NCBI GenBank assembly: GCA_964624415.1
Contig: CAZUWR010000001.1
Location: 3,855 to 67,854, forward strand
Direction of reading: 5' to 3'
Length of the DNA stretch: 64,000 bases
From: an uncultured Bdellovibrionales bacterium
GTDB taxonomy: Bacteria; Patescibacteriota; Minisyncoccia; Moranbacterales; UBA1568
Position numbers and translations under genes: made by a program. Position 1 is the first letter of the stretch; each line of letters begins with the position of its first letter. This document shows positions 5,300-59,779 of this stretch, one piece after another. A model generated the notes under the pieces. That model was not told where the DNA came from and made no database searches. It saw nothing but the letters and a program-made list of their open reading frames with translations.

Positions 5300-5609
5300 A
5301 TTCCCTCCAAAAGGAATGTAGTTGAAAGAACAAATACGTATCTTGGAAACAAGATAGCTATCAGACTCTAGCATAACAAGGCATATTTGTCCAATTGAAA
5401 GAACCGCCTCGTCCACTTGAGGCGATTTTTGAAGAATGCTATAGTAAAAGCATATCTCGGGTATTTTTTGAGGCAATGTAAGGAAGTCAGTTGTCCTAAA
5501 AAATCAGACAACTAAAATTGGAATGGGAGTGGTAGTGTAGTAAATAAGAAAAACATGAAAGTTTGACACAGCAAGCCGAGAAGTTTCTTATCAAATAAAA
5601 AATAATCGC

Positions 5610-7421: not shown

Positions 7422-7440
7422 GCTTTTATAGCTTGAGAAA

Positions 7441-7471
7441 AAACACTCCCCTCACGGGGGGTGTTTTTTTG
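7441..7471 (+). terminator. intrinsic terminator of cspA
   Basis: ACACTCCCC-TCAC-GGGGGGTGT followed by T7. Confidence 0.8.
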
Positions 7472-7646
7472 ACGCTCATTTTCAAAGAAGCTATACTGAG
7501 AGGAGAAAGACCTTTTGAAAATAAAGTGTATTTCTTTATGAAAAGTATTTTTTCTCAGCCGAGGCGAGTACGCCAATGGCTTAAGAAAAAATCTTTTCAC
7601 AAGAAATACTATTCGAATTGTACGTATCACTAAAATAGTCTCAGCT

Positions 7647-8207
7647 ATGAATGTATCAAAGACAGCAATAGAAGGATTGCTCATTATCGAACCGAAGGCC
7701 TTTGCGGATGATCGGGGGTTTTTTATGGAAGTATATAATCACGATCGGTATGTGGAGGCAGGTATCACCGAACTGTTTGTGCAGGACAATGTCTCGGTGT
7801 CCAAGAAGGGGACACTGCGCGGACTGCATTATCAGGTGCCTCCGTTCGCTCAAGGTAAGCTGGTGCAGGTATTGCGCGGATCGGTACTCGATGTGGCAGT
7901 GGATATCCGAAGCGGCTCACCGACATTCGGGAAATATGTTGCGGTCGAGCTTTCGGCGGAGAACAAAAAACAGTTCTGGATTCCAGCGGGTTTCGCTCAT
8001 GGTTTTGTCGCTTTGGAAGACGAAACGATTTTCAGTTACAAGTGCACCAATCCGTATTCGCCGGAACATGATCGAGGTATTGTGTGGAGTGATTCGGAAA
8101 TCGGTATACAGTGGCCGTTTTCGGTTTCGGAGCTCTTGATTTCCGAGAAAGATGCCGCGCAGCCAAAGCTTAAGGATATCGCACGTGAATTCGTGCAATC
8201 GATTTGA
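7647..8207 (+). CDS. rfbC: dTDP-4-dehydrorhamnose 3,5-epimerase
   Basis: 186 aa with RGLHYQ, GKLVQVLRGSVLDVAVDIR and IPAGFAHGF motifs. Confidence 0.9.
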   Translation: MNVSKTAIEGLLIIEPKAFADDRGFFMEVYNHDRYVEAGITELFVQDNVSVSKKGTLRGLHYQVPPFAQGKLVQVLRGSVLDVAVDIRSGSPTFGKYVAVELSAENKKQFWIPAGFAHGFVALEDETIFSYKCTNPYSPEHDRGIVWSDSEIGIQWPFSVSELLISEKDAAQPKLKDIAREFVQSI

Positions 8208-8258
8208 TTTTTCTCTGCTGTAATCGCTGGGGTATGCATAAGAAAATAGGGGCAAGAA

Positions 8259-8305
8259 TTTTTCAGAACCACATGCGTACTCGCATCGGTCTTGAAAAAT
8301 TACTT
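8259..8305 (+). repeat. intercistronic long-hairpin repeat, copy 1
   Basis: TTTTTCAGAACCACATGCGTACTCGCATCGGTCTTGAAAAATTACTT, between rfbC and rfbB. Confidence 0.6.
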
Positions 8306-8350
8306 GAACATATTTTCTGACACACTTATACGAATAATAATTGTATTTTT

Positions 8351-9331
8351 ATGAAACTTTTAGTCACGGGCGGAGCGGGATTTATCGGGTCCAATTTCAT
8401 CCACTATATCCTCAAGAAATATCCCGAGTACAGCGTGGTCAATCTGGATGCTTTGACGTATGCAGGCAATCCGGAAAACGTGCGGGAGTGGGAAGGTGAC
8501 CCGCGGTATACTTTCGTTAAGGGGGATATTTGCGATGCAGAGCTTGTGGAAAAATTGGTGCAAGGTGTCGATGCTATCGTACACTTTGCTGCCGAGTCGC
8601 ATGTCGATCGCTCTATCTTGGATGCGCATTCATTCGTGCAGACCAATGTGATTGGAACGCAAACGCTTTTGGATGCCGCTCTGCACAATGACAAGAAGCG
8701 TTTTCATCATGTCTCGACCGACGAGGTCTTCGGTGCGCTCAAACCAGAAGATGAGCCGTTTTCAGAGAAGACACCCTATGACCCGCGCAGCCCGTACAGC
8801 GCTTCGAAGGCCGGATCCGATCATCTGGTGCGGGCGTATTTCCACACCCACGGACTACCGGTGACGATTTCCAATTGTTCCAATAATTATGGCCCGTATC
8901 ATTTTCCGGAAAAGCTGATACCACTGGCAATTACTAATCTAATGGAAGGGAAGCAGGTGCCGGTCTATGGCGACGGGATGCAGGTGCGCGATTGGCTTTT
9001 TGTCGAGGATCACTGCCGTGCCATCGATTTGATCGTGCATCAGGGGGCGCTCGGTGAGACCTACTGTGTGGGTGGGGCATCGGAGCGCGCCAATATCGAT
9101 ATCGTGAAGCAGCTGCTCAAGCTTATGGGCAAGGATGAAACGAGTATTGAGTATGTGACCGACCGGCTCGGGCATGATCGGCGCTATGCTATCGATTTTT
9201 CAAAAATCAAAAAAGAACTCGGATGGGAGCCGACCGTGACCCTCGAAGATGGACTCAAGCAGACCGTTGAGTGGTTTACAGAGAACGAAGGCTGGTGGCA
9301 GCGCATCAAGTCGGGGGAGTATAGAAAATAA
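8351..9331 (+). CDS. rfbB: dTDP-glucose 4,6-dehydratase
   Basis: 326 aa with the Rossmann motif VTGGAGFIGSNF, YSASKAGSD (YxxxK) and DRRYAID. Confidence 0.9.
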   Translation: MKLLVTGGAGFIGSNFIHYILKKYPEYSVVNLDALTYAGNPENVREWEGDPRYTFVKGDICDAELVEKLVQGVDAIVHFAAESHVDRSILDAHSFVQTNVIGTQTLLDAALHNDKKRFHHVSTDEVFGALKPEDEPFSEKTPYDPRSPYSASKAGSDHLVRAYFHTHGLPVTISNCSNNYGPYHFPEKLIPLAITNLMEGKQVPVYGDGMQVRDWLFVEDHCRAIDLIVHQGALGETYCVGGASERANIDIVKQLLKLMGKDETSIEYVTDRLGHDRRYAIDFSKIKKELGWEPTVTLEDGLKQTVEWFTENEGWWQRIKSGEYRK

Positions 9332-9340
9332 TGAAATAGT

Positions 9341-9829
9341 ATGCCTGATAAAAATACGGTAGTGTTACTCGAGAAAACATACCAAACAATGGTAAAGAAT
9401 AGCGAAGGAACGAAAATGTTCAACTCTCTTTTTGTTCAAACTAAAGAAACAGGGATGGTTCAGGATATTCTTCAGGACGGAATGTATTCGTGTGCGTTTT
9501 TTGTGAGTACGCTTCTTGTTATGTTTCGTGTTATTGATGAACCTTGCACGACAGTAAACTCATTACAGAAAAAAATTATTCAAGGTAAGCAAAAGTTTTA
9601 CCAAATTTCTCAGCCTGAATGTGGTGATATTGTTTTTTGGGAAGAGATTACTTTTGAGGATGGATCAAAAAACAAGCATGTCGGGCTTGCTCTCAATGCA
9701 CAAGAGGCAGTATCAACCAATTTTAGGGAAAAAAAGGTTTCTAAACATCATATAACCTTTGGAATGGATAAAGAGGGTAATCCAAAAAGAAAGATTATTG
9801 AAATGTATCGGATAAAATTTGAATCATAA
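9341..9829 (+). CDS. hypothetical protein, possible NlpC/P60-like Cys-His hydrolase
   Basis: 162 aa. YSCAFFVS followed by CGDIVFWEE...HVGLAL resembles the Cys...GDxxFx...HVG layout of NlpC/P60 enzymes. This is motif-level evidence only. Confidence 0.35.
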   Translation: MPDKNTVVLLEKTYQTMVKNSEGTKMFNSLFVQTKETGMVQDILQDGMYSCAFFVSTLLVMFRVIDEPCTTVNSLQKKIIQGKQKFYQISQPECGDIVFWEEITFEDGSKNKHVGLALNAQEAVSTNFREKKVSKHHITFGMDKEGNPKRKIIEMYRIKFES

Positions 9830-14309: not shown

Positions 14310-15002
14310 ATGGATATGTTTAATGCGGACAATGTAGCAAAAAAATTGGGCATCCTTATTCATAATAAGGATCTTTTTCAGATGGCGGTCACGCATCGTT
14401 CGTATCTGAATGAGCATCGTGATCACCCTCTTAATCACAATGAACGGCTTGAATTCTTGGGTGATGCGGTTTTGGAATTGATCGTAACGGAGTATCTGTA
14501 TCACAACTATCCGAATCCGGAAGGGGAATTGACCAGTTGGCGGGCGGCGCTGGTGAACGGCGAAATGCTGGCCGTGGTGGCGCGCAGTATCGGCGTGGAG
14601 GAGTTTTTGATGATGAGCAAGGGCGAGGCCAAAGATACGGGACGAGCGAGGCAATACCTTTTGGCCAATGCGATGGAGGCGATTATCGGGGCCATCTATT
14701 TGGATCAGGGGTATGACGCTGCCAAAGACTTTATCACCAAGACGGTCTTAATTCACCTTGATGAAGTATTGAAGAGCAAGTCCTATGCCGATCCCAAGAG
14801 CCGTTTCCAAGAAGAGGCTCAGGAGCGTATGGGCATCACGCCCAATTATCACGTGTTGCGCGAGAAGGGTCCCGATCACGACAAGCATTTCGTTTCCGGG
14901 GCTTTCCTTGGGGAAGAATTGATTGCGGAAGGCGAGGGTCAATCCAAGCAAGAGGCGCAACGAGAGGCTGCCAAGAACGCCCTGGAGAAGAAGGGGTGGT
15001 AG
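14310..15002 (+). CDS. rnc: ribonuclease III
   Basis: RNase III signature NERLEFLGDAVLE and a C-terminal dsRBD (GPDHDKHF...GEGQSKQEAQREAA). ATG at 14310 avoids overlap with nusB. Confidence 0.9.
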   Translation: MDMFNADNVAKKLGILIHNKDLFQMAVTHRSYLNEHRDHPLNHNERLEFLGDAVLELIVTEYLYHNYPNPEGELTSWRAALVNGEMLAVVARSIGVEEFLMMSKGEAKDTGRARQYLLANAMEAIIGAIYLDQGYDAAKDFITKTVLIHLDEVLKSKSYADPKSRFQEEAQERMGITPNYHVLREKGPDHDKHFVSGAFLGEELIAEGEGQSKQEAQREAAKNALEKKGW

Positions 15003-33148: not shown

Positions 33149-33244
33149 TTGACAAAAGTCAATTATGGGTGTATAAAGAAATGTCTTATCAGTGAGATGC
33201 CTTACTGATCGAAAGACCAATGAAATTGAAATGAGGAGAAAAAG
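33149..33244 (+). promoter_or_regulatory. promoter plus conserved hairpin leader, copy A
   Basis: TTGACA (33149-33154), 17-nt spacer, TATAAA, then GTCTTATCAGTGAG...ACTGATCGAAAGACCAATGAA and a GAGGAG RBS. It is about 80 percent identical by eye to copy B. Confidence 0.6.
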
Positions 33245-33423: not shown

Positions 33424-33460
33424 GCGTCGGAAGGTATATGCCATTCGACGCGCTTTTTTA
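33424..33460 (+). terminator. intrinsic terminator
   Basis: GCGTCGGA-loop-TTCGACGC followed by GCTTTTTT. It overlaps the nrdG stop codon. Confidence 0.65.
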
Positions 33461-34168
33461 TTCCCGGATACTGATGGAATCGAGATAGGGAAGCATTGTT
33501 TTTCGGATGGCATGCAGGTCGAGCTTATGTGTACCGATACGCTCGCGGAGGGTTTCGTCGGCAATTTTGAGCGGGCGGAAAGCCTGGAGGACATAGCTTT
33601 CGGCGCCGGCGATCCACTGCGCGATATCGAGGAAATCTTCGGGCGTGTGGATGCTGGGGACGACGGTGGTACGAAATTCATACGGCATACCGGAGGACAT
33701 CAGCAGTTTCACGGACTTCTCGAAGCGTTTGATGGGGATGGATGTGACACCGGATGCGAGCGGATACTTTTTTTGGCTGTGCTTGATATCCATCGCCCAA
33801 AAGTCCACCAAACCCGTGGCGAGGAGCGCTTCCACCTTGTCGGGGAAGATGCCGTTGGTATCGAGCTTGACGAGAAAGCCAAGGTCTTTGACACGGCGGA
33901 TGAAGTCGAGCAGGTCGGCGTGCAAGGTGGGCTCGCCGCCGGTAATGACCACGCCCTCGAGCAGTCCTTGGCGGGTCGCGAGAAATTCGAAAAACTCCTC
34001 TTCGCGATTGACGGTGAACAATTCCGAGGGACTGCCCGGGACGGCAGTGATGAGCTCGGGGTTGTGGCAATAGGGGCAACGAAGCGCGCAACCGGGCGTG
34101 AACACGATAGTGGCCAAGTGATCAGGGTAGTCGATAAGGGTGAGCGGTTCGAAGCCAGCGATACGCAT
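33458..34168 (-). CDS. nrdG: anaerobic ribonucleoside-triphosphate reductase activating protein (radical SAM)
   Basis: GCALRCPYCHNPEL is a CxxxCxxC cluster. GGEPTL motif. Adjacent to nrdD. Confidence 0.9.
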   Translation of the reverse strand: MRIAGFEPLTLIDYPDHLATIVFTPGCALRCPYCHNPELITAVPGSPSELFTVNREEEFFEFLATRQGLLEGVVITGGEPTLHADLLDFIRRVKDLGFLVKLDTNGIFPDKVEALLATGLVDFWAMDIKHSQKKYPLASGVTSIPIKRFEKSVKLLMSSGMPYEFRTTVVPSIHTPEDFLDIAQWIAGAESYVLQAFRPLKIADETLRERIGTHKLDLHAIRKTMLPYLDSISIRE

Positions 34169-34172
34169 AGGA

Positions 34173-34261
34173 TTGACAAAAGTCGGTTACGGGTGTATAA
34201 TACGGTGTCTTATCAGTGAGGAATCTGACTGAGGAAAGACCAATGAACGAGGAGAGTACAA
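34173..34261 (+). promoter_or_regulatory. promoter plus conserved hairpin leader, copy B
   Basis: TTGACA (34173-34178), 17-nt spacer, TATAAT (34196-34201), then GTCTTATCAGTGAG...ACTGAGGAAAGACCAATGAA and a GAGGAG RBS. Confidence 0.6.
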
Positions 34262-34686: not shown

Positions 34687-36900
34687 TCACATCCGTGTCG
34701 CTTCCGCAGTGGCGAGAGAGATGTCCGAGACATACTCATTGCGATCGCCATACTCGGCGCGCTTGCCATTGTTCCACTGCTCGACGGGGCGGATATAGCC
34801 CACGACGCGTGAGTAGACTTCGGCTGGGCGCTCGCAGTGCGGGCAGATCGGTTGTTCGCCGGTCAAGTAGCCGTGCTCGGCGCAGATGCTGAAGGTCGGT
34901 GTGAGGGTGAAGTATGGCAGACTGTATTTTTCGGTGATAAGCTTGACCAGTTTTTTGGCTGTTTCGATGCCGTTGATTTTCTCTCCCAAAAATCCGTGTA
35001 GCACCGTGCCTCCCGTGTAGAGGGTTTGGAGGCCGTCTTGCAGATCGAGCGCTTCGAAGATATCGCTCGTGTGCCCCACGGGAATATGCGATGAGTTGGT
35101 GTAGTATGGGGCGGTTTGCTCGGATTGTACGGAAGCCTCATTGGCCACGATAATGTCTGGGTGGAATTTCTTGTCCAAAAGAGCGAGGCGATAAGCGGTG
35201 CCTTCGGCCGGTGTGGCTTCGAGGTTGTAGAGATTGCCGGTTTCTTTCTGATAGCCTTCCAGACGCTTGCGCATATGCGTGAGGATTTTTTTCGCGAAGG
35301 CTTGGCCTTTGGCGGTAGTGATATCGACTTGCGCGCCGAGGAGATTTTGGATGGCTTCGTTGGTGCCGACCAAACCGATAGTGCCGAAGTGATTTTGCCA
35401 GTAGGTGCCGAAGCGTTCCTTGATAGCGGAGAGGTAGAATTTGGTGTAGGGGTACAGACCCTTGTCCGTGAGGCGCTCGACGACGGTGCGCTTCATCTCA
35501 AGGCTTGTCTTGGCAAGGTCCATCTGATGGTCGAGTCGCGCGAAGAAGTCTTTTTCACTGGAAGCAAGATAGCCCAGGCGAGGAAGGTTGATGGTCACCA
35601 CACCAATGGAACCGGTGAGGGGATTGGCGCCGAAGAGTCCGCCACCGCGCTTGCGCAGTTCGCGATTATCGAGGCGCAATCGACAACACATACTGCGTGC
35701 ATCATCGGGATGCATATCCGAATTGACGAAGTTGGCGAAGTATGGGATGCCGTATTTGACCGTCATCTCCCACACGGGATTGAAGCTCTTGTCGTCCCAA
35801 TCAAAGTCCTTGGTGATATTGTAGGTCGGAATCGGGAAAGTGAAGATGCGTCCCGAGGCATCGCCTTCTGTCATCACTTCGGCGAAGGCGCGGTTGATCA
35901 TCGCCATTTCTTTGGGAAAATCGGCGTAGGTTTCTTTCTGGACTTCGCCTCCGCGGACGACATGTTCTTTGGCGAGCATCGCGGGCGCGGTGATGTCCAT
36001 CGTGATATTGGAAAACGGTGTCTGGAAGCCGACGCGCGTGGCGACATTCATATTGAACACGAAGGATTGGATGTCTTGCTTGACCTGCGCGTAACTGAGT
36101 TTGTCGTAGCGGATGAACGGGGCGAGCAGGGTGTCGAAACTCGAGAAGGCCTGCGCTCCGGCCACTTCGCCTTGGAGAGTGTAGATGAAATTGACCATCT
36201 GCCCGAGGATGGCGCTGAAGTGTTTGGCGGGTTTGCACGCCACCTTGCCTGGGACACCGGTGAAGCCGCGACGGATAAGGTCTTGCAGATCCCAACCGCA
36301 ACAGTATGCGGCGACGAGCTGCAAATCGTGGATGTGCAGGTCGCCCGATTCGTGCGCTTCGCGGATATCGGCCGTGTAGATGCGATTCATCCAGTACTTG
36401 GCACTGATAGCAGACGAAACATAGTTGTTCAGTCCCTGGAGAGAATAAGCCATATTGGCATTTTCTTTGACCTTCCAGTCGAGATTGCCGAGATAGTTGT
36501 CGATGAGCGAGACAGCATTGTCCAGAGCGGTTTCCGCTTCGCGTGCTTGACGCCTTTGCTCGCGGTAGAGGATGTAGGCTTTGGCGGTTTCTTCGAAGTC
36601 CAGTATCATCAGGACTTTTTCGGTGCAGTCCTGTACATTCTCGATAGTCGGCACAAAGGATTTCTTGGTGGCTTTGTGAAAGGTGCGCGCCTGTTTGTCT
36701 AGGAGTGCGACGACTTTTTTTGAAATACGTCGCGCATCCTTAAGAGATCCTTCCTGAGTAGCTTTGAAAGCCTTGCTGACGGCTTGGGTTATTTTGTCCG
36801 CTTTGAAAGAAACTCTGCGGCCGTCGCGTTTGATGAGGTGTTTGACACAGACGGCTTTGGACGAAACAGTGGCGGACGGCGTGGCGATAGTGCGTGGCAT
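34687..36900 (-). CDS. nrdD: anaerobic ribonucleoside-triphosphate reductase (class III) with N-terminal ATP-cone
   Basis: ATP-cone VIKRDGRRVSFKADKI, C-terminal zinc site CPHC and the glycyl-radical motif SRVVGYIRPV. ATG at 36900 is preferred to the track start at 36960. Confidence 0.9.
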   Translation of the reverse strand: MPRTIATPSATVSSKAVCVKHLIKRDGRRVSFKADKITQAVSKAFKATQEGSLKDARRISKKVVALLDKQARTFHKATKKSFVPTIENVQDCTEKVLMILDFEETAKAYILYREQRRQAREAETALDNAVSLIDNYLGNLDWKVKENANMAYSLQGLNNYVSSAISAKYWMNRIYTADIREAHESGDLHIHDLQLVAAYCCGWDLQDLIRRGFTGVPGKVACKPAKHFSAILGQMVNFIYTLQGEVAGAQAFSSFDTLLAPFIRYDKLSYAQVKQDIQSFVFNMNVATRVGFQTPFSNITMDITAPAMLAKEHVVRGGEVQKETYADFPKEMAMINRAFAEVMTEGDASGRIFTFPIPTYNITKDFDWDDKSFNPVWEMTVKYGIPYFANFVNSDMHPDDARSMCCRLRLDNRELRKRGGGLFGANPLTGSIGVVTINLPRLGYLASSEKDFFARLDHQMDLAKTSLEMKRTVVERLTDKGLYPYTKFYLSAIKERFGTYWQNHFGTIGLVGTNEAIQNLLGAQVDITTAKGQAFAKKILTHMRKRLEGYQKETGNLYNLEATPAEGTAYRLALLDKKFHPDIIVANEASVQSEQTAPYYTNSSHIPVGHTSDIFEALDLQDGLQTLYTGGTVLHGFLGEKINGIETAKKLVKLITEKYSLPYFTLTPTFSICAEHGYLTGEQPICPHCERPAEVYSRVVGYIRPVEQWNNGKRAEYGDRNEYVSDISLATAEATRM

Positions 36901-41552: not shown

Positions 41553-41609
41553 TTTATAGAATCATAGTGTTTATGGTTTGTTGGTGTTTACACACAAGGA
41601 TATTGTTGT

Positions 41610-41680
41610 TGGGGAGGAAGGGATCGAACCTTCGCATGGGGGCTTCAAAGGCCCCTGCCTTACCGCTTGGCTACTCCCCA
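41610..41680 (-). tRNA. tRNA-Gln (anticodon UUG), CCA not encoded
   Basis: The reverse complement reads TGGGGAG-TA-GCCAAGCGGTAAGGCA-G-GGGGC-CTTTGAA-GCCCC-CATGC-GAAGG-TTCGATC-CCTTC-CTCCCCA. It has a 7-bp acceptor stem, a GGTTCGATCC T-arm and the anticodon loop CU-UUG-AA. Confidence 0.9.
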
Positions 41681-41707
41681 ATAATGACTTTTTCTCTTAT
41701 AGACAAA

Positions 41708-41734
41708 GATCCTTCGACTACGCTCAGGATGACA
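41708..41734 (+). repeat. GTCATCC...GGATC palindromic element, half copy
   Basis: GATCCTTCGACTACGCTCAGGATGACA is identical to 59188-59214. It is intergenic, between dnaX and tRNA-Gln. Confidence 0.65.
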
Positions 41735-41843: not shown

Positions 41844-43493
41844 TCAGGCGACGATCTCACCACCGAGAATGCTCATCGCTTCGGTCAAAATCGGGCTGAT
41901 CGGAGCTTGCGCGACGGGTGCTGATTGAGGTGTCGCGCTCTCGTCCAAGACCACTTTGATCTTTGTTTTTGACTCTAAAATTGTATCAAAAGCGCTCTCT
42001 ACTGTCAATTTGTTCTCGACGGCATTGATTTTGTCTTTGTACATCGGGAACTTGGCGCCGAGCACGACACTACCGCCATCGCCGATATACAAGGGTCTGC
42101 AATTGCCGAGAGTGAGGGCGAGCGAGGAGTTGAGCTCGCGCACTTTGGCGATGATAGATTGCCAGTGGTCTTTGACCGTGTCTATGCTTACGGCAGCTGT
42201 TTCTGTGGGTGCAGTTGTTGGTATGACCGGTTCGGCGGCTGGCGAGGTGAGGGGTTGTGTGCCGATTACATAGGGGGCTGCGGGTTCTTTAACAAGCGAT
42301 GCTTGAGTAAGTGTTGTTTGTTGTTTGTTGTTTGTTGTTAATTGTTGACTGTTCTCCGTTTTCTGTTTATTGTTCACTGTTTGCTGTTGATTGCTCACGG
42401 ACTCAGGCACAAGAAACTTGACCACAGCGATTTCGAGCGGGAACTGGGCGATGGAGGCAATACGGATTTCTTTGCGCGCCGATGAGAAGAGATCGATGAG
42501 CGTGATGATCCCGGAGGTGGTGAGGCTTTCCGCACAAGCGGTGAGCGTATCGATGTGCTCTCGCGTCATTTCGAGGGCGAGGGTGTCGGCAAGGGTGCGG
42601 TCGACACTGATAAGAAGCATCTGCCGAAGCGAGTGTAGGAGGGAATTGACGAAGATATACAGATCGGCACCAGTTTCCACCAGTTGATTGATAAGGGCGA
42701 TAGCATTTTCCATCTCCCCGTGCGTGAGATGCGCCAGAAGCGTATCGACTTTTTGTTGATCGGTGATGCCGAGTATGGAGGAGACTTCGTCGGTCGTGAT
42801 AGTTTTGTCTTCGAGACTGATGACCTGCGTGAGGAGGGATTCGGCATCGCGCATACCACCCTCGGCGGCAAGGGCGATCATCTCGAGCGCAGGCTTGTCG
42901 ATAGCTACTCCCTCGCTTGCAGCGATACCGGCGAGCTTTTCGATGATATGATCGAGCGGAAGGCGTGAGAAATCGAAGCGCTGGCAGCGGGAAAGGATGG
43001 TCTCGGGGACTTTGTGTAAAGAGGTGGTAGCGAGAATGAAGATGACATGCTTGGGTGGCTCCTCGAGTGTCTTAAGGAGCGCGTTGAAAGCGCCGATGGA
43101 GAGCATATGTACTTCATCGATGATATAGACCTTGAAGGGCGCTTGTGTTGGGAGGAGTTTGATAGAGTCGCGCAGTTCGCGAATATTGTCCACGCCGGTA
43201 TTGGAAGCGGCATCGATTTCAATTACATCAAGCGAGCTTCCGCTCGCCATAGCGAGGCAGTGAGCGCACTGAAGACAGGGTTCCACACCTTTCCGATCAA
43301 GACAGGTGACTGCTTTTGCCAAAAGCCTGGCAGTGGTGGTTTTACCGGTACCGCGCGGCCCCGTAAAGAGATAAGCCTGGCCGAGGCGATCGTTTTTGAG
43401 GGCATTGGTGATGGTTTTGATGATATGGGTTTGCCCGATGACATCGGAAAATTGTTGCGGGCGGTATTTGCGGTACAGTGTATTGGTAGACAT
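41844..43493 (-). CDS. dnaX: DNA polymerase III subunit gamma/tau
   Basis: YRKYRPQQFSDVIGQ, Walker A GPRGTGKTT, zinc module CLQCAHC, DEVHMLS and SRC motifs. Gln/Asn/Thr-rich linker after domain III. The start is ATG at 43493 or TTG at 43508. Confidence 0.9.
   Translation of the reverse strand: MSTNTLYRKYRPQQFSDVIGQTHIIKTITNALKNDRLGQAYLFTGPRGTGKTTTARLLAKAVTCLDRKGVEPCLQCAHCLAMASGSSLDVIEIDAASNTGVDNIRELRDSIKLLPTQAPFKVYIIDEVHMLSIGAFNALLKTLEEPPKHVIFILATTSLHKVPETILSRCQRFDFSRLPLDHIIEKLAGIAASEGVAIDKPALEMIALAAEGGMRDAESLLTQVISLEDKTITTDEVSSILGITDQQKVDTLLAHLTHGEMENAIALINQLVETGADLYIFVNSLLHSLRQMLLISVDRTLADTLALEMTREHIDTLTACAESLTTSGIITLIDLFSSARKEIRIASIAQFPLEIAVVKFLVPESVSNQQQTVNNKQKTENSQQLTTNNKQQTTLTQASLVKEPAAPYVIGTQPLTSPAAEPVIPTTAPTETAAVSIDTVKDHWQSIIAKVRELNSSLALTLGNCRPLYIGDGGSVVLGAKFPMYKDKINAVENKLTVESAFDTILESKTKIKVVLDESATPQSAPVAQAPISPILTEAMSILGGEIVA
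42313..42352 (+). repeat. heptanucleotide tandem repeat plus A/C-rich element in the dnaX linker
   Basis: (GTTGTTT)x3 plus GTTGTTA at 42313-42340. The segment 42320-42352 matches dnaE 61738-61767. Confidence 0.65.
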
Positions 43494-50339: not shown

Positions 50340-50765
50340 ATGGCGAAGAAAATCAAGACGATTATCAAGTTGCAAATCCAGGGCGGAAAGGCGAATCCAG
50401 CTCCTCCAGTCGGACCAGCACTCGGTCAGCACGGTCTCAATATCCAGGATTTTTGCGCGAAGTTCAATGACGCGACCCGGGATAAGATGGGCGATGTGAT
50501 TCCTGCAGAAATCACCGTATACGATGATCGCACTTTCACGTTCGTACTCAAGACTCCTCCTGCTGCTGAGCTGCTCAAGAAGGCTGCCAAGGCAACTAAG
50601 GGTGCTGCTAATCCGCTCAAAGAAAAGGTGGGAACGGTTACAACAGAGCAGTTGCGAGAAATCGCGGAGACCAAGATGGAGGATTTGAACGCGAACGATG
50701 TGGATATGGCGATGCGAATCGTCGCCGGAACTGCCCGTTCGATGGGTATTAAGGTAAGCGAGTAG
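50340..50765 (+). CDS. rplK: 50S ribosomal protein L11
   Basis: [24 protein letters not shown] motif. Confidence 0.95.
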
Positions 50766-50795
50766 TTTTTGTAAGTAATTTTCTTGTGAAAAAGA

Positions 50796-50843
50796 TTTTT
50801 TCATGACCACATGTGTACTCACATCGGTCTGGAAAAAATACTT
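50796..50843 (+). repeat. intercistronic long-hairpin repeat, copy 2
   Basis: TTTTTTCATGACCACATGTGTACTCACATCGGTCTGGAAAAAATACTT, between rplK and rplA. The inner stem ATGTG/CACAT differs from ATGCG/CGCAT in copy 1. Confidence 0.6.
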
Positions 50844-50942
50844 TTTTAGCAAGAAAATAGCAACATTAAATATTGAGGAAGAGATTAATTTTTATCACAG
50901 TGGGAGCTTCGTTCGGCGAGGCGTCTGTACCACAACAAACAT

Positions 50943-51632
50943 ATGATACGAGGAAAAAAATACCGCGCAGCCGTTGAGAAGATCGAGAAGGAAAAAGACT
51001 ATTCTTTGGAAGAAGCTTTGACTTTCGTGAAGAGCAATGTGCTTGCAAAATTCGACGAGTCTGTTGAAGTGCACTTTAAGCTCGGCATCAACCCAAGCAA
51101 GGGTGAGGAGCAGGTCCGCTCTACCGCTATTTTGCCGCACGGTGTCGGACGATCCAAGAAGGTGGCCGTCATCACGACGACCAAGATGTCTGAGGCCAAG
51201 GAGGCTGGCGCCGATCTGATCGGTGGCGAAGAATTGATCGAGGATATCAAAAACGGGAAAGTGGTCGCCGGTGTCGATTTTGATATCGTTGTGGCTACTC
51301 CGGAAGCGATGCCGAAGCTCGCGAGTGTCGCGAAAATCCTCGGACCGAAAGGTTTGATGCCGAACCCGAAGACGGAAACGGTGACGACCAAGGTCAAGGA
51401 CGTCGTGGATGCCTTGAAGAAGGGAAGTAAGGTAAGCTTCAAAAACGACAAGAGCGGAAACATCCATCAGGTGATCGGTAAGCTTTCATTTGATGTCGCG
51501 CAGCTCAAAGACAATTATCAGGCAGTATTCGATGTTCTGCAAAAAGCCAAGCCCGAGACGATGAAGGGTTGCTATATCCAGTCTATCGCTCTGTGCTCGA
51601 CTATGGGACCGGCTGTCAAAATCAAGGCGTAA
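50943..51632 (+). CDS. rplA: 50S ribosomal protein L1
   Basis: 229 aa with KLGPKGLMPNPK-type and GKLSF motifs. It follows rplK. Confidence 0.9.
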   Translation: MIRGKKYRAAVEKIEKEKDYSLEEALTFVKSNVLAKFDESVEVHFKLGINPSKGEEQVRSTAILPHGVGRSKKVAVITTTKMSEAKEAGADLIGGEELIEDIKNGKVVAGVDFDIVVATPEAMPKLASVAKILGPKGLMPNPKTETVTTKVKDVVDALKKGSKVSFKNDKSGNIHQVIGKLSFDVAQLKDNYQAVFDVLQKAKPETMKGCYIQSIALCSTMGPAVKIKA

Positions 51633-58789: not shown

Positions 58790-59779
58790 TTAGAAGAAGA
58801 TCTCTGTTTCCGAGGCAGCCTCTATCCAGTGGATATCAGCGCCCTGTTTTTCCCATCGGCGCAGCCAAGTGCGCTGTCTTTTGGCATAGTGGACGATGTC
58901 GAAGAAAAGTTTTTCTTTCATTGTCGGTTCGTCGATGTTTCCCTGCAAGAAGCGAGCTATCCATCGGTATTCAAGACCGAAGGCCTCCAGTTTTTCCCAT
59001 GCCGCGCCATGCTCGTGGAGGCGCCGCACTTCTTCGATCATGCCCTGATCGAAGCGTTCGTCCAGGCGTTTTCGTATATTCGCATCCAGGATGTCTTTTG
59101 GAGGATTGAACGCGATAATGAAATAGTTGCTTTGATTGATATATTGAGGTTTGGGATGTGTCATTCCGATCGTAGCGGAGGAATCCGAGATCCTTCGACT
59201 ACGCTCAGGATGACATATCATGGGGTTGCTCTGCAGTGAAGGGACTTTTCCAAGTGATTGTACGATTTCCAGAGCCCGGATAAGCCGGATGGGATTGTTT
59301 CTATCGATAGTTAGGGCTCTTTCCGGATCGATGGCTTGCAGTTTTGCAAAGAGTTCTTGGATAGAAAGGTGCGAAAGTTCTTTGCGCAGTATGAGATCGG
59401 GCAAGACCTCCGGGAAGGATTGGTTATCGATGAGCGCCTGCGCCCAAAAAAGCGTACCTCCGCAGAGGATGGGGAGTTTGCCGCGGCTTCGGATGTCTCG
59501 GATGATTGCTTGGGCATCACATTTGAAGTCCGTGACATTGTACTCCTCGTGCGGCTCGCGAATATCGAGGAGGTGATGCTGAGCGAGCGACTGCTCTTCG
59601 GTAGTCACCTTACCCGTCCCGATATCCATTCCGCAGTACACCTGTCGGCTGTCGGCTGAAATAATCTCGCCATCGTATTTGAGGGCCAGTGAAATTGCCA
59701 AAGAAGACTTGCCCGAGGCTGTCGGCCCGACGATGGCAAGGGTTTGTGATCTGTCGAATTTTCTTGACGTATGATTCAT
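58790..59779 (-). CDS. miaA: tRNA dimethylallyltransferase, carrying an in-frame 57-nt palindromic element
   Basis: P-loop GPTASGKSS, SADSRQVY, GGTLFW and RLIRALEI motifs. The segment CHPERSRRISDSSATIGMT is encoded by the repeat at 59158-59214. Confidence 0.9.
   Translation of the reverse strand: MNHTSRKFDRSQTLAIVGPTASGKSSLAISLALKYDGEIISADSRQVYCGMDIGTGKVTTEEQSLAQHHLLDIREPHEEYNVTDFKCDAQAIIRDIRSRGKLPILCGGTLFWAQALIDNQSFPEVLPDLILRKELSHLSIQELFAKLQAIDPERALTIDRNNPIRLIRALEIVQSLGKVPSLQSNPMICHPERSRRISDSSATIGMTHPKPQYINQSNYFIIAFNPPKDILDANIRKRLDERFDQGMIEEVRRLHEHGAAWEKLEAFGLEYRWIARFLQGNIDEPTMKEKLFFDIVHYAKRQRTWLRRWEKQGADIHWIEAASETEIFF
59158..59214 (+). repeat. 57-nt palindromic element (two inverted GTCATYC...GGAWTC arms) inside miaA
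   Basis: TGTCATTCCGATCGTAGCGGAGGAATC-CGA-GATCCTTCGACTACGCTCAGGATGACA. Its length is divisible by 3 and the reading frame is preserved. Confidence 0.7.

Follow-up and report, generated by a model that had tools for sequence, protein, structure and literature searches.

RESULTS

A palindromic repeat lies on both sides of rfbC and between rplK and rplA

The DNA analyzed here is a 64-kb stretch, referred to in its entirety as the window, from an uncultured bacterium that homologues of its L1 assign to the Candidatus Moranbacteria (Moraniibacteriota; CPR/Patescibacteria). Among the proteins that it encodes are RfbC and RfbB of the rhamnose operon, which follow a cold-shock (csp) gene, and the ribosomal proteins L11 and L1 (Table 1). 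The rfbC-rfbB and rplK-rplA spacers each hold a 47-nt sequence that the initial annotation had described as a hairpin-forming repeat, and direct reading of the window confirmed both. Longer folds revealed that this 47-nt unit is a real core but not the whole of the repeat. The full unit is an imperfect palindrome of 78 to 82 nt, and the interval first noted in the rfbC-rfbB spacer (8259 to 8305) lies within the full copy 1.

The 64-kb window was searched with a covariance model for which copies 1 and 2 were the sole input. The model scored copy 1 at 73.7 bits and copy 2 at 74.1 bits and also identified a third copy with the pairing kept (45.9 bits, E = 1e-7), which is new and had been missed in the initial annotation. 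The core of copy 3 (GATTTTTTCTTAAGCCATTGGCGTACTCGCCTCGGCTGAGAAAAAATAC) retains GATTTTTTC, CCA, GnGTACTCnC, TCGG, and GAAAAAATAC. The total in the window is therefore three copies in both orientations, with copies 1 and 3 located within 700 nt of each other around rfbC.

Table 1. Positions of the repeat copies and of the genes and sites discussed in the text
Feature	Position	Strand	Remarks
Copy 1, full 78-nt imperfect palindrome	8241-8318	+	rfbC-rfbB spacer; core 8256-8303
Copy 2, full 81-nt imperfect palindrome	50778-50858	+	rplK/L11-rplA/L1 spacer; core 50794-50841
Copy 3, full 82-nt imperfect palindrome	7528-7609	-	rfbC 5' UTR; core 7545-7593
Doubtful fourth candidate	5461-5505	-	Only the ends GATTTTTT...AAAAAATAC match; interior unrelated
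rfbC	7647-8207		Neighbor of copy 1
rfbB	8351-9331		Neighbor of copy 1
rplK (L11)	50340-50765		Neighbor of copy 2; nusG upstream
rplA (L1)	50943-51632		Neighbor of copy 2
Promoter-like site	7469-7497	+	TTGACG-17-TATACT; 10/12 consensus; upstream of copy 3 and rfbC
RNase III gene	14310-15002	+	Pfam Ribonucleas_3_3 1.5e-41, Ribonuclease_3 2.2e-26, dsrm 1.2e-15

Beyond the 47-nt core, copies 2 and 3 share flanks of 12 to 14 nt (TTTCTTGTGAAAAGATTTTTTC and GAAAAAATACTTTT), with TTTCTTGTGAAAA(A)GA upstream and TACTTTT downstream. The outermost arms, of 8 to 10 nt, are ATTTTCTTG...CAAGAAAAT in copies 2 and 3 and AAGAAAATA...TATTTTCT in copy 1, so that relative to the asymmetric core the arms of copy 1 are swapped.

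Pattern searches of the window, judged against dinucleotide-preserving shuffles with an expectation of zero, matched copies 1 and 2 only. This was the case both for a degenerate 25-nt pattern of the core, in which as many as 3 mismatches were tolerated (no match expected from 100 shuffles), and for the pattern T-run..ACC..GGT..A-run. Searches of the window with the flank and loop motifs found no further copies. The candidate at 5461 to 5505 scored 17 to 19 bits (E = 0.2 to 0.4) and folds weakly (z = -2.8). We rejected it as a fourth copy because its end runs alone match, as such runs likewise do inside coding genes of relatives; the match is probably due to chance.

The repeat folds into a long hairpin with compensated stems

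The hairpin originally described, in which a T-run/A-run stem is followed by ACC/GGT and by a 5-bp inner stem closed by a TACT loop, was reproduced in both copies 1 and 2. Folded as RNA, their 47-nt cores reach -16.9 and -18.1 kcal/mol (z = -4.65 and -4.98), and none of 200 shuffles folded as well. Extended DNA folds gave -20.2 kcal/mol (z = -6.1) for copy 1, z = -6.4 for copy 2, and -25.4 kcal/mol (z = -7.6) for copy 3. As full-length RNA, the three copies form hairpins of -31 to -40 kcal/mol with 31 to 35 predicted pairs (copy 1, -30.9 kcal/mol and 31 pairs; copy 2, -33.7 kcal/mol). The minus strand of the 47-nt core folds equally well or better. At full length, the RNA of the element strand is 1 to 5 kcal/mol more stable than that of the opposite strand in all three copies, a slight edge that is a weak hint of strand-specific structure.

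At the center of the unit lies the TACT loop, which is closed by a G-C pair, and GTACTC is kept in all three copies. Stem I (4 to 5 bp) varies with compensation and is followed by an asymmetric internal loop, a CC/GG-based stem II, and a stem III formed by the T-run and A-run (8 to 9 bp). A bulged A on the 3' side and two outer AT-rich stems complete the architecture. Conservation is highest in the loop, the bulged A, and the internal-loop bases; it is lower toward the termini, and the outermost arms are the least conserved part. All three copies are short, imperfect, hairpin-forming palindromes outside genes, in intergenic or UTR sequence.

Alignment of copies 1 and 2 bore out the two substitutions on which the initial annotation had relied, namely, a double change in the inner stem (ATGCG/CGCAT to ATGTG/CACAT) and a change from A.C to G-C. 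It also revealed an unlisted compensatory change, from A-T to T-A, in the second pair of the T-run/A-run stem. Copy 3 adds ACC/GGT to GCC/GGC and, in the inner stem, T-A to G-C. Across the three-copy alignment, 7 of the 19 core pairs are changed on both sides and 93% of cells pair, whereas pairing falls to about 50% when the partners are slid by one column; these figures are indicative only, since the alignment of three sequences was fitted to the model. The initial annotation took such changes to argue for selection on structure. Selection on an RNA structure in a fixed sense orientation is not supported, since copy 3 is inverted and the two strands differ little in folding. Compensation alone is no pointer to RNA function because compensated palindromes also arise at the DNA level, for example, when a transposase recognizes hairpins in single-stranded DNA or through template switching within a strand, which is known to produce compensated changes in quasi-palindromes.

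Copies 1 and 2 are in the sense orientation, and copy 3 is antisense to rfbC

The proposal that the copies share one orientation relative to the flanking genes applies to copies 1 and 2, which are in the sense orientation, but fails for the set as a whole because copy 3 is inverted. A promoter-like site follows the terminator of the csp gene, and copy 3 lies about 30 nt downstream of it. This sequence is conserved in two relatives (L029 and L030), and a third (L027) keeps the -10 hexamer. Because copy 3 is downstream of a conserved promoter-like site, we place it in the rfbC 5' UTR, in antisense orientation; use of the site as a promoter is inferred from its sequence. No good promoter-like site was seen near copies 1 and 2, which lie inside operons.

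Other sequence signals were considered and rejected. We found no consistent -35/-10 pair in or just after the three copies, which excludes a promoter carried by the element. An intrinsic terminator would have the opposite polarity, and a terminator scanner called none of the three sites. The shared flank resembles a CRP-like TGTGA-N6-TCACA box, but the second half-site is absent. Integron attC sites were dismissed from a reading of the sequence, which contains no RYYYAAC/GTTRRRY core sites and is flanked by core housekeeping genes.

On the minus strand, positions 7438 to 7550 gave a sub-threshold Rfam match to the Bacteroides small RNA BTnc231 (37.6 bits versus a gathering threshold of 80.4; E = 7e-6 for a 1-kb search). 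At one end the match takes in the 3' part of copy 3, and at the other it reaches the bidirectional csp terminator. The minus strand also has weak promoter-like sites at 7659 to 7632 and 7644 to 7617, and there may be a short antisense transcript that contains copy 3 in the sense orientation.

The window also encodes an RNase III with a domain that binds double-stranded RNA. With 31 to 35 predicted pairs, the transcribed hairpins exceed the approximately 20 bp of double-stranded RNA that an RNase III substrate requires. From the predicted folds, a link between this enzyme and the repeat is plausible.

Relatives lack the repeat at all three sites

The orthologous spacers of the relatives recovered lack the element at all three sites. 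The initial annotation had named such a lack, together with the absence of further copies, as counting against its proposal; the first was observed, but copy 3 is a further copy and keeps the pairing. The L11-L1 spacer is 177 nt long in the window, compared with 57 nt in L009, 72 nt in L012, 147 nt in L010, and 119 nt in L026, relatives whose L1 is 87%, 81%, 86%, and 98% identical to that of the window, respectively. The whole element is absent from this site in L009 and L012. The spacer of L010 lacks the hairpin and contains an unrelated insert. All of these relatives share with the window a 34-nt motif that is conserved immediately ahead of the start codon of rplA.

This motif, GTGGGAGCTTCGTTCGGCGAGGCGTCTGTACCAC (50900 to 50933), lies directly upstream of the rplA start and is nearly invariant in all Moranbacteria relatives examined. 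It presumably resembles an L1-binding autoregulatory leader that mimics the 23S L1 stalk; an Rfam search at this motif returned no family even at E = 10.

The closest relative found, L026, is 93.4% identical in DNA over 1,934 nt, and its flanks align cleanly. It lacks positions 50790 to 50832 of the window (43 nt, the core hairpin) and 50765 to 50779, and it keeps the outer palindrome TTCTTGTGAAAAAAATACTTTTTTAGCAAGAA, an A-run/T-run hairpin. The comparison exposes an imperfect direct repeat of 9 to 10 nt (TGTGAAAAA / TCTGGAAAAA) that is also part of the palindrome. The difference may equally represent insertion of the core into an older AT hairpin or deletion between TGTGAAAAA and TCTGGAAAAA. 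Deletion between direct repeats is the usual route by which long palindromes are lost.

At the rhamnose operon, the rfbC-rfbB spacer is 7 nt in three relatives with 85% identity (L029, L030, and L031), versus 143 nt in the window, and the csp-rfbC spacer of these relatives is 111 nt, versus 225 nt. Copy 3 is absent from L029 and L030. In the 93% relative (L027/L028; L028 and L026 share an ENA sample), the inserts on both flanks of rfbC are quite different, including that at the copy 3 site in L027. Two covariance models searched over about 80 kb of relatives' DNA found no family member. Occupied and empty orthologous sites were thus seen at L11-L1, csp-rfbC, and rfbC-rfbB, and judged from these alignments, the element is lineage specific at all three. 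Because it is absent from the orthologous spacers of relatives, it is not a conserved part of the regulation of these operons.

The flanks of rfbC differ among relatives in other ways and seem to be insertion hot spots in this clade. In L027 (1 to 213 and 763 to 970), the rfbC 5' UTR, next to an rfbC that is 93% identical, holds a different insert of about 170 nt with inverted repeats GTCATCCTGAAC...GTTCAGGATGAC and ATGCTGAA...TTCAGCAT around a GC hairpin, and the rfbC-rfbB spacer contains a small open reading frame with two CxxC motifs. Within 8194 to 8340 of the window, the last rfbC codons differ from those of relatives. The ancestral rfbC 3' end (CTTTTATACAGAAATAA in L029) persists as noncoding CTTATACGAATAATAA at 8325 to 8340, downstream of copy 1; therefore, approximately 130 nt was inserted into the end of rfbC, creating a new RfbC C terminus. 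Between rfbB and rfbD, which are adjacent in L029, the window has an extra 162-amino-acid open reading frame (9341 to 9829) with no Pfam match.

Searches beyond the window

The initial annotation had suggested comparison with Rfam, and no family matched the element at either the gathering or the E-value threshold. Sub-threshold matches were limited to generic long-hairpin (miRNA precursor) models, which delimit 50775 to 50861. In species-representative genomes, the pattern ACCACATNNGTACTNNCATCGGT, a weak test because it was too strict for copy 3 itself to pass, gave 5 matches. All were dismissed as chance, as their NN positions are unpaired and the T-run/A-run flanks are absent. The pattern TTTCN{2,7}CCANNNNNGTACTCNNNNTCGGN{2,7}GAAA gave 13 chance matches in JGI metagenomes and none in viral contigs. 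A blastn search of phage and plasmid collections returned nothing relevant, and Pfam identified no transposase, RAYT, or integrase among the approximately 50 proteins of the window that were scanned. A full-text literature search on CPR/Patescibacteria found no report of REP or MITE families.

Logan contigs added 796 nt beyond the window and no new copy. In the run from the source sample (SRR12487045; loci L006, L007, and L008/L032), one contig ends at 8297 and another starts at 8277, giving a 21-nt overlap inside copy 1; a third starts at 50822, inside the core of copy 2; and one runs straight through copy 3. The breaks fit interruptions of assembly induced by repeats or heterogeneity, and they could be caused by other near-identical copies, strain heterogeneity, or poor coverage of hairpins.

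Other repeats in the window

The Logan contig that starts in copy 2 has a computed end at about 59216, at the second copy of another repeat. This is a 28-nt exact direct repeat, AGATCCTTCGACTACGCTCAGGATGACA, found at 41707 to 41734 and 59188 to 59215, 17.5 kb apart. Its first copy adjoins a tRNA (41609 to 41680, minus strand), and its second is preceded by an inverted related unit, GTCATTCCGATCGTAGCGGAGGAATC; the pair may represent a second palindromic repeat family or island boundaries. A 60-nt repeat (33149 to 33208 and 34173 to 34232; 78% identity) contains a near-consensus promoter, TTGACA-17-TATAAA/TATAAT, followed by a hairpin, CTTATCAGTGAG...CTTACTGA. Its copies flank a radical-SAM gene (33458 to 34168, minus strand) next to a 737-amino-acid minus-strand open reading frame (34687 to 36900) that, by synteny with relatives, is probably NrdD. 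Degenerate TGTTGTT-type repeats with a period of 7/14 at 42312 to 42401, inside a minus-strand open reading frame (41844 to 43493), probably encode a low-complexity protein segment.

DISCUSSION

The hairpin is probably the core of an approximately 80-nt, lineage-specific, nonautonomous palindromic repeat of the REP or MITE type, dispersed in the noncoding, transcribed DNA of one Candidatus Moranbacteria lineage. Because there are three copies, in both orientations, that are missing from the same sites in relatives, a small mobile or unstable repeat of an ordinary kind is the most likely reading, and a conserved RNA regulator is disfavored. Copies would arise by the copying and insertion of a DNA hairpin, likely through a transposase that is encoded elsewhere in the genome and recognizes the folded single strand. 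Such recognition would account for a conserved loop and conserved unpaired bases alongside covarying stems. By analogy with the action of RAYT or IS200/IS605 enzymes on REPs, the conserved loop, bulged A, and internal loop suggest recognition of this kind. The palindromes would also be prone to deletion between short flanking direct repeats, such as TGTGAAAAA / TCTGGAAAAA at the L11-L1 site. Several observations stand against a mobile repeat. The swapped arms of copy 1 are not explained by a simple cut-and-paste unit, and no clear target-site duplication can be defined at a site where L026 retains the outer palindrome. The center rather than the termini is most conserved, unlike in classical MITEs. 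Only three copies are present in 64 kb, with none in the pattern scans of genomes, metagenomes, and viruses, and the roughly 50 window proteins scanned include no transposase, RAYT, or integrase.

The main rival is a selected cis-acting RNA element, in which a hairpin between cistrons acts in processing or stability (for example, as an RNase III site or as a barrier to 3' exonucleases) and tunes rfbC relative to rfbB and L11 relative to L1. The conserved loop and unpaired bases with covarying stems, the position of all three copies in transcribed noncoding DNA, the stability of the 31- to 35-pair hairpins (-31 to -40 kcal/mol) and its slight bias to the element strand, and the RNase III encoded in the window all speak for such an element, and in Neisseria, RNase III binds or cleaves transcribed Correia elements (PMC2649163). 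However, copy 3 runs against the direction of rfbC transcription, its strands and those of the other copies differ little in folding, and Rfam offers no matching family. In addition, every relative recovered lacks the element in its orthologous spacers, including the one with a 98% identical L1; we therefore regard this reading as unlikely. The inverted copy 3 poses no difficulty for a double-stranded DNA-binding site or cruciform, which works either way round and through which a lineage-specific protein would act on neighboring promoters or topology; candidates are a global regulator, a nucleoid-associated protein, or a gyrase-type or IHF-type site. Phased A-tracts and T-tracts flanking a GC core with GTAC would suit such a site, as would the location of copy 3 about 30 nt downstream of the promoter-like site. 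Against this, 78 to 82 bp is far longer than a normal operator, and the operon-internal positions of copies 1 and 2 lack a good promoter-like site nearby. Moreover, compensated stems lose the base identity that a reader of double-stranded DNA would need, and the conserved asymmetric loop and bulge point to a folded single strand rather than a duplex. We give this explanation the slightest probability of all.

The copies could also be functionless, nonmobile relics of local rearrangement, gene conversion, or template switching at AT-rich spacers. There are only three of them, two within 700 nt around rfbC, whose flanks are rearrangement hot spots with inserts that differ from relative to relative; at the L11-L1 site, L026 already forms a hairpin of an A-run and a T-run; and the outer arms of copy 1 are swapped. 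Independent events would not be expected, however, to yield a core of about 48 nt with identical loop, bulge, and internal-loop bases at sites 42 kb apart, or the 12- to 14-nt flanks shared by copies 2 and 3, and this makes an origin as local relics very unlikely. A distinctly small chance, smaller than that of the RNA element, attaches to an undescribed system in CPR. This would be either a hairpin-recognizing mobilization system, in which a REP-like repeat without GTAG is served by its own Y1/HUH-type or other enzyme, or a regulatory system in which a protein-bound RNA hairpin with a GTACTC loop was recently recruited for operon stoichiometry.

CPR/Patescibacteria have small, streamlined genomes, which are usually considered repeat-poor. 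If the reading as a mobile or unstable repeat is true, recent expansion or decay in one Moranbacteria lineage would indicate that miniature selfish DNA persists even in CPR. In practical terms, the repeat appears to break short-read assemblies, it lengthens the spacers of ribosomal-protein and rhamnose operons, and its compensatory changes can lead to its being taken for a regulatory RNA. Transcription of each copy would, as a side effect, put a hairpin of 30 to 35 bp into mRNA, in the rfbC 5' UTR, at the rfbC-rfbB junction, and at the rplK-rplA junction. A transcribed hairpin is a putative RNase III substrate or exonuclease barrier and therefore could uncouple the expression of flanking genes. 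Processing or stabilization at the rfbC-rfbB and rplK-rplA junctions is plausible by analogy with transcribed Correia elements in Neisseria, which RNase III binds or cleaves (PMC2649163). Should RNase III process the hairpins, L11/L1 and RfbC/RfbB expression would be coupled differently in this strain only.

Among known systems, intrinsic terminators resemble the repeat in that both are GC-containing hairpins in intergenic spacers, with A-runs and T-runs on either side. Here, however, both strands read as T-run, stem, and A-run, with no T-tract after the stem, whereas the intrinsic terminators of this genome read as A-run, stem, and T-run. The resemblance to REP/REPIN elements, which are mobilized by RAYT tyrosine transposases (Bertels and Rainey 2011, PMC3116915; Di Nocera et al. 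2013, PMC3733652), is closer. Like these, the repeat is an imperfect palindrome that is extragenic, mostly in transcribed DNA, found in both orientations, and species specific, and its structure is conserved with compensated stems. Moreover, the 80-nt unit can be read as two inverted sub-palindromes (GAAAAAnnTTTTTTC) in one long hairpin, like a REPIN doublet. The hallmark of REPs, an unpaired GTAG (or CGTC) tag at one end of the palindrome (PMC3733652), was not seen on direct reading of the three copies. The ends of the element are GA(T/A)TTTTTC...GAAAAA(A/T)TAC, with GTAT/GTAA on the other strand, and the only GTAG nearby is in the L11 stop-codon context of copy 2. The repeat also differs from REP/REPIN in its host, a CPR bacterium with a small genome. 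REPs number tens to hundreds per genome; three copies of this repeat were found in the 64 kb of the window, and no RAYT (IS200/IS605-like Y1 transposase) was found among the approximately 50 proteins scanned there.

Correia elements (CREE/NEMIS) of Neisseria, and MITEs generally, are palindromic units of about 80 to 150 bp between or next to genes, as is this repeat. Correia elements further resemble it in their presence/absence polymorphism between close strains and their transcription into long hairpins, which in Neisseria bind RNase III and are cleaved or protected by it (PMC2649163). Their 26-bp terminal inverted repeats are well conserved, their core is variable, and they have a TA target duplication, whereas here the center is most conserved and the outer arms vary, with no definable target duplication. 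As to the terminal inverted repeats of MITEs, the whole unit is palindromic here, but conservation is lowest in its outermost arms, which copy 1 has swapped. As to a target-site duplication, the comparison with L026 leaves the TGTGAAAAA / TCTGGAAAAA repeat, which fits deletion by slippage equally well. A parent insertion sequence was found neither in the phage and plasmid collections nor, as a transposase, in the window. ERIC, RUP, and RPE are other bacterial MITEs of a similar kind. With its conserved center and covarying stems, the repeat described here fits recognition of a folded strand better than it fits a classical terminal-repeat MITE.
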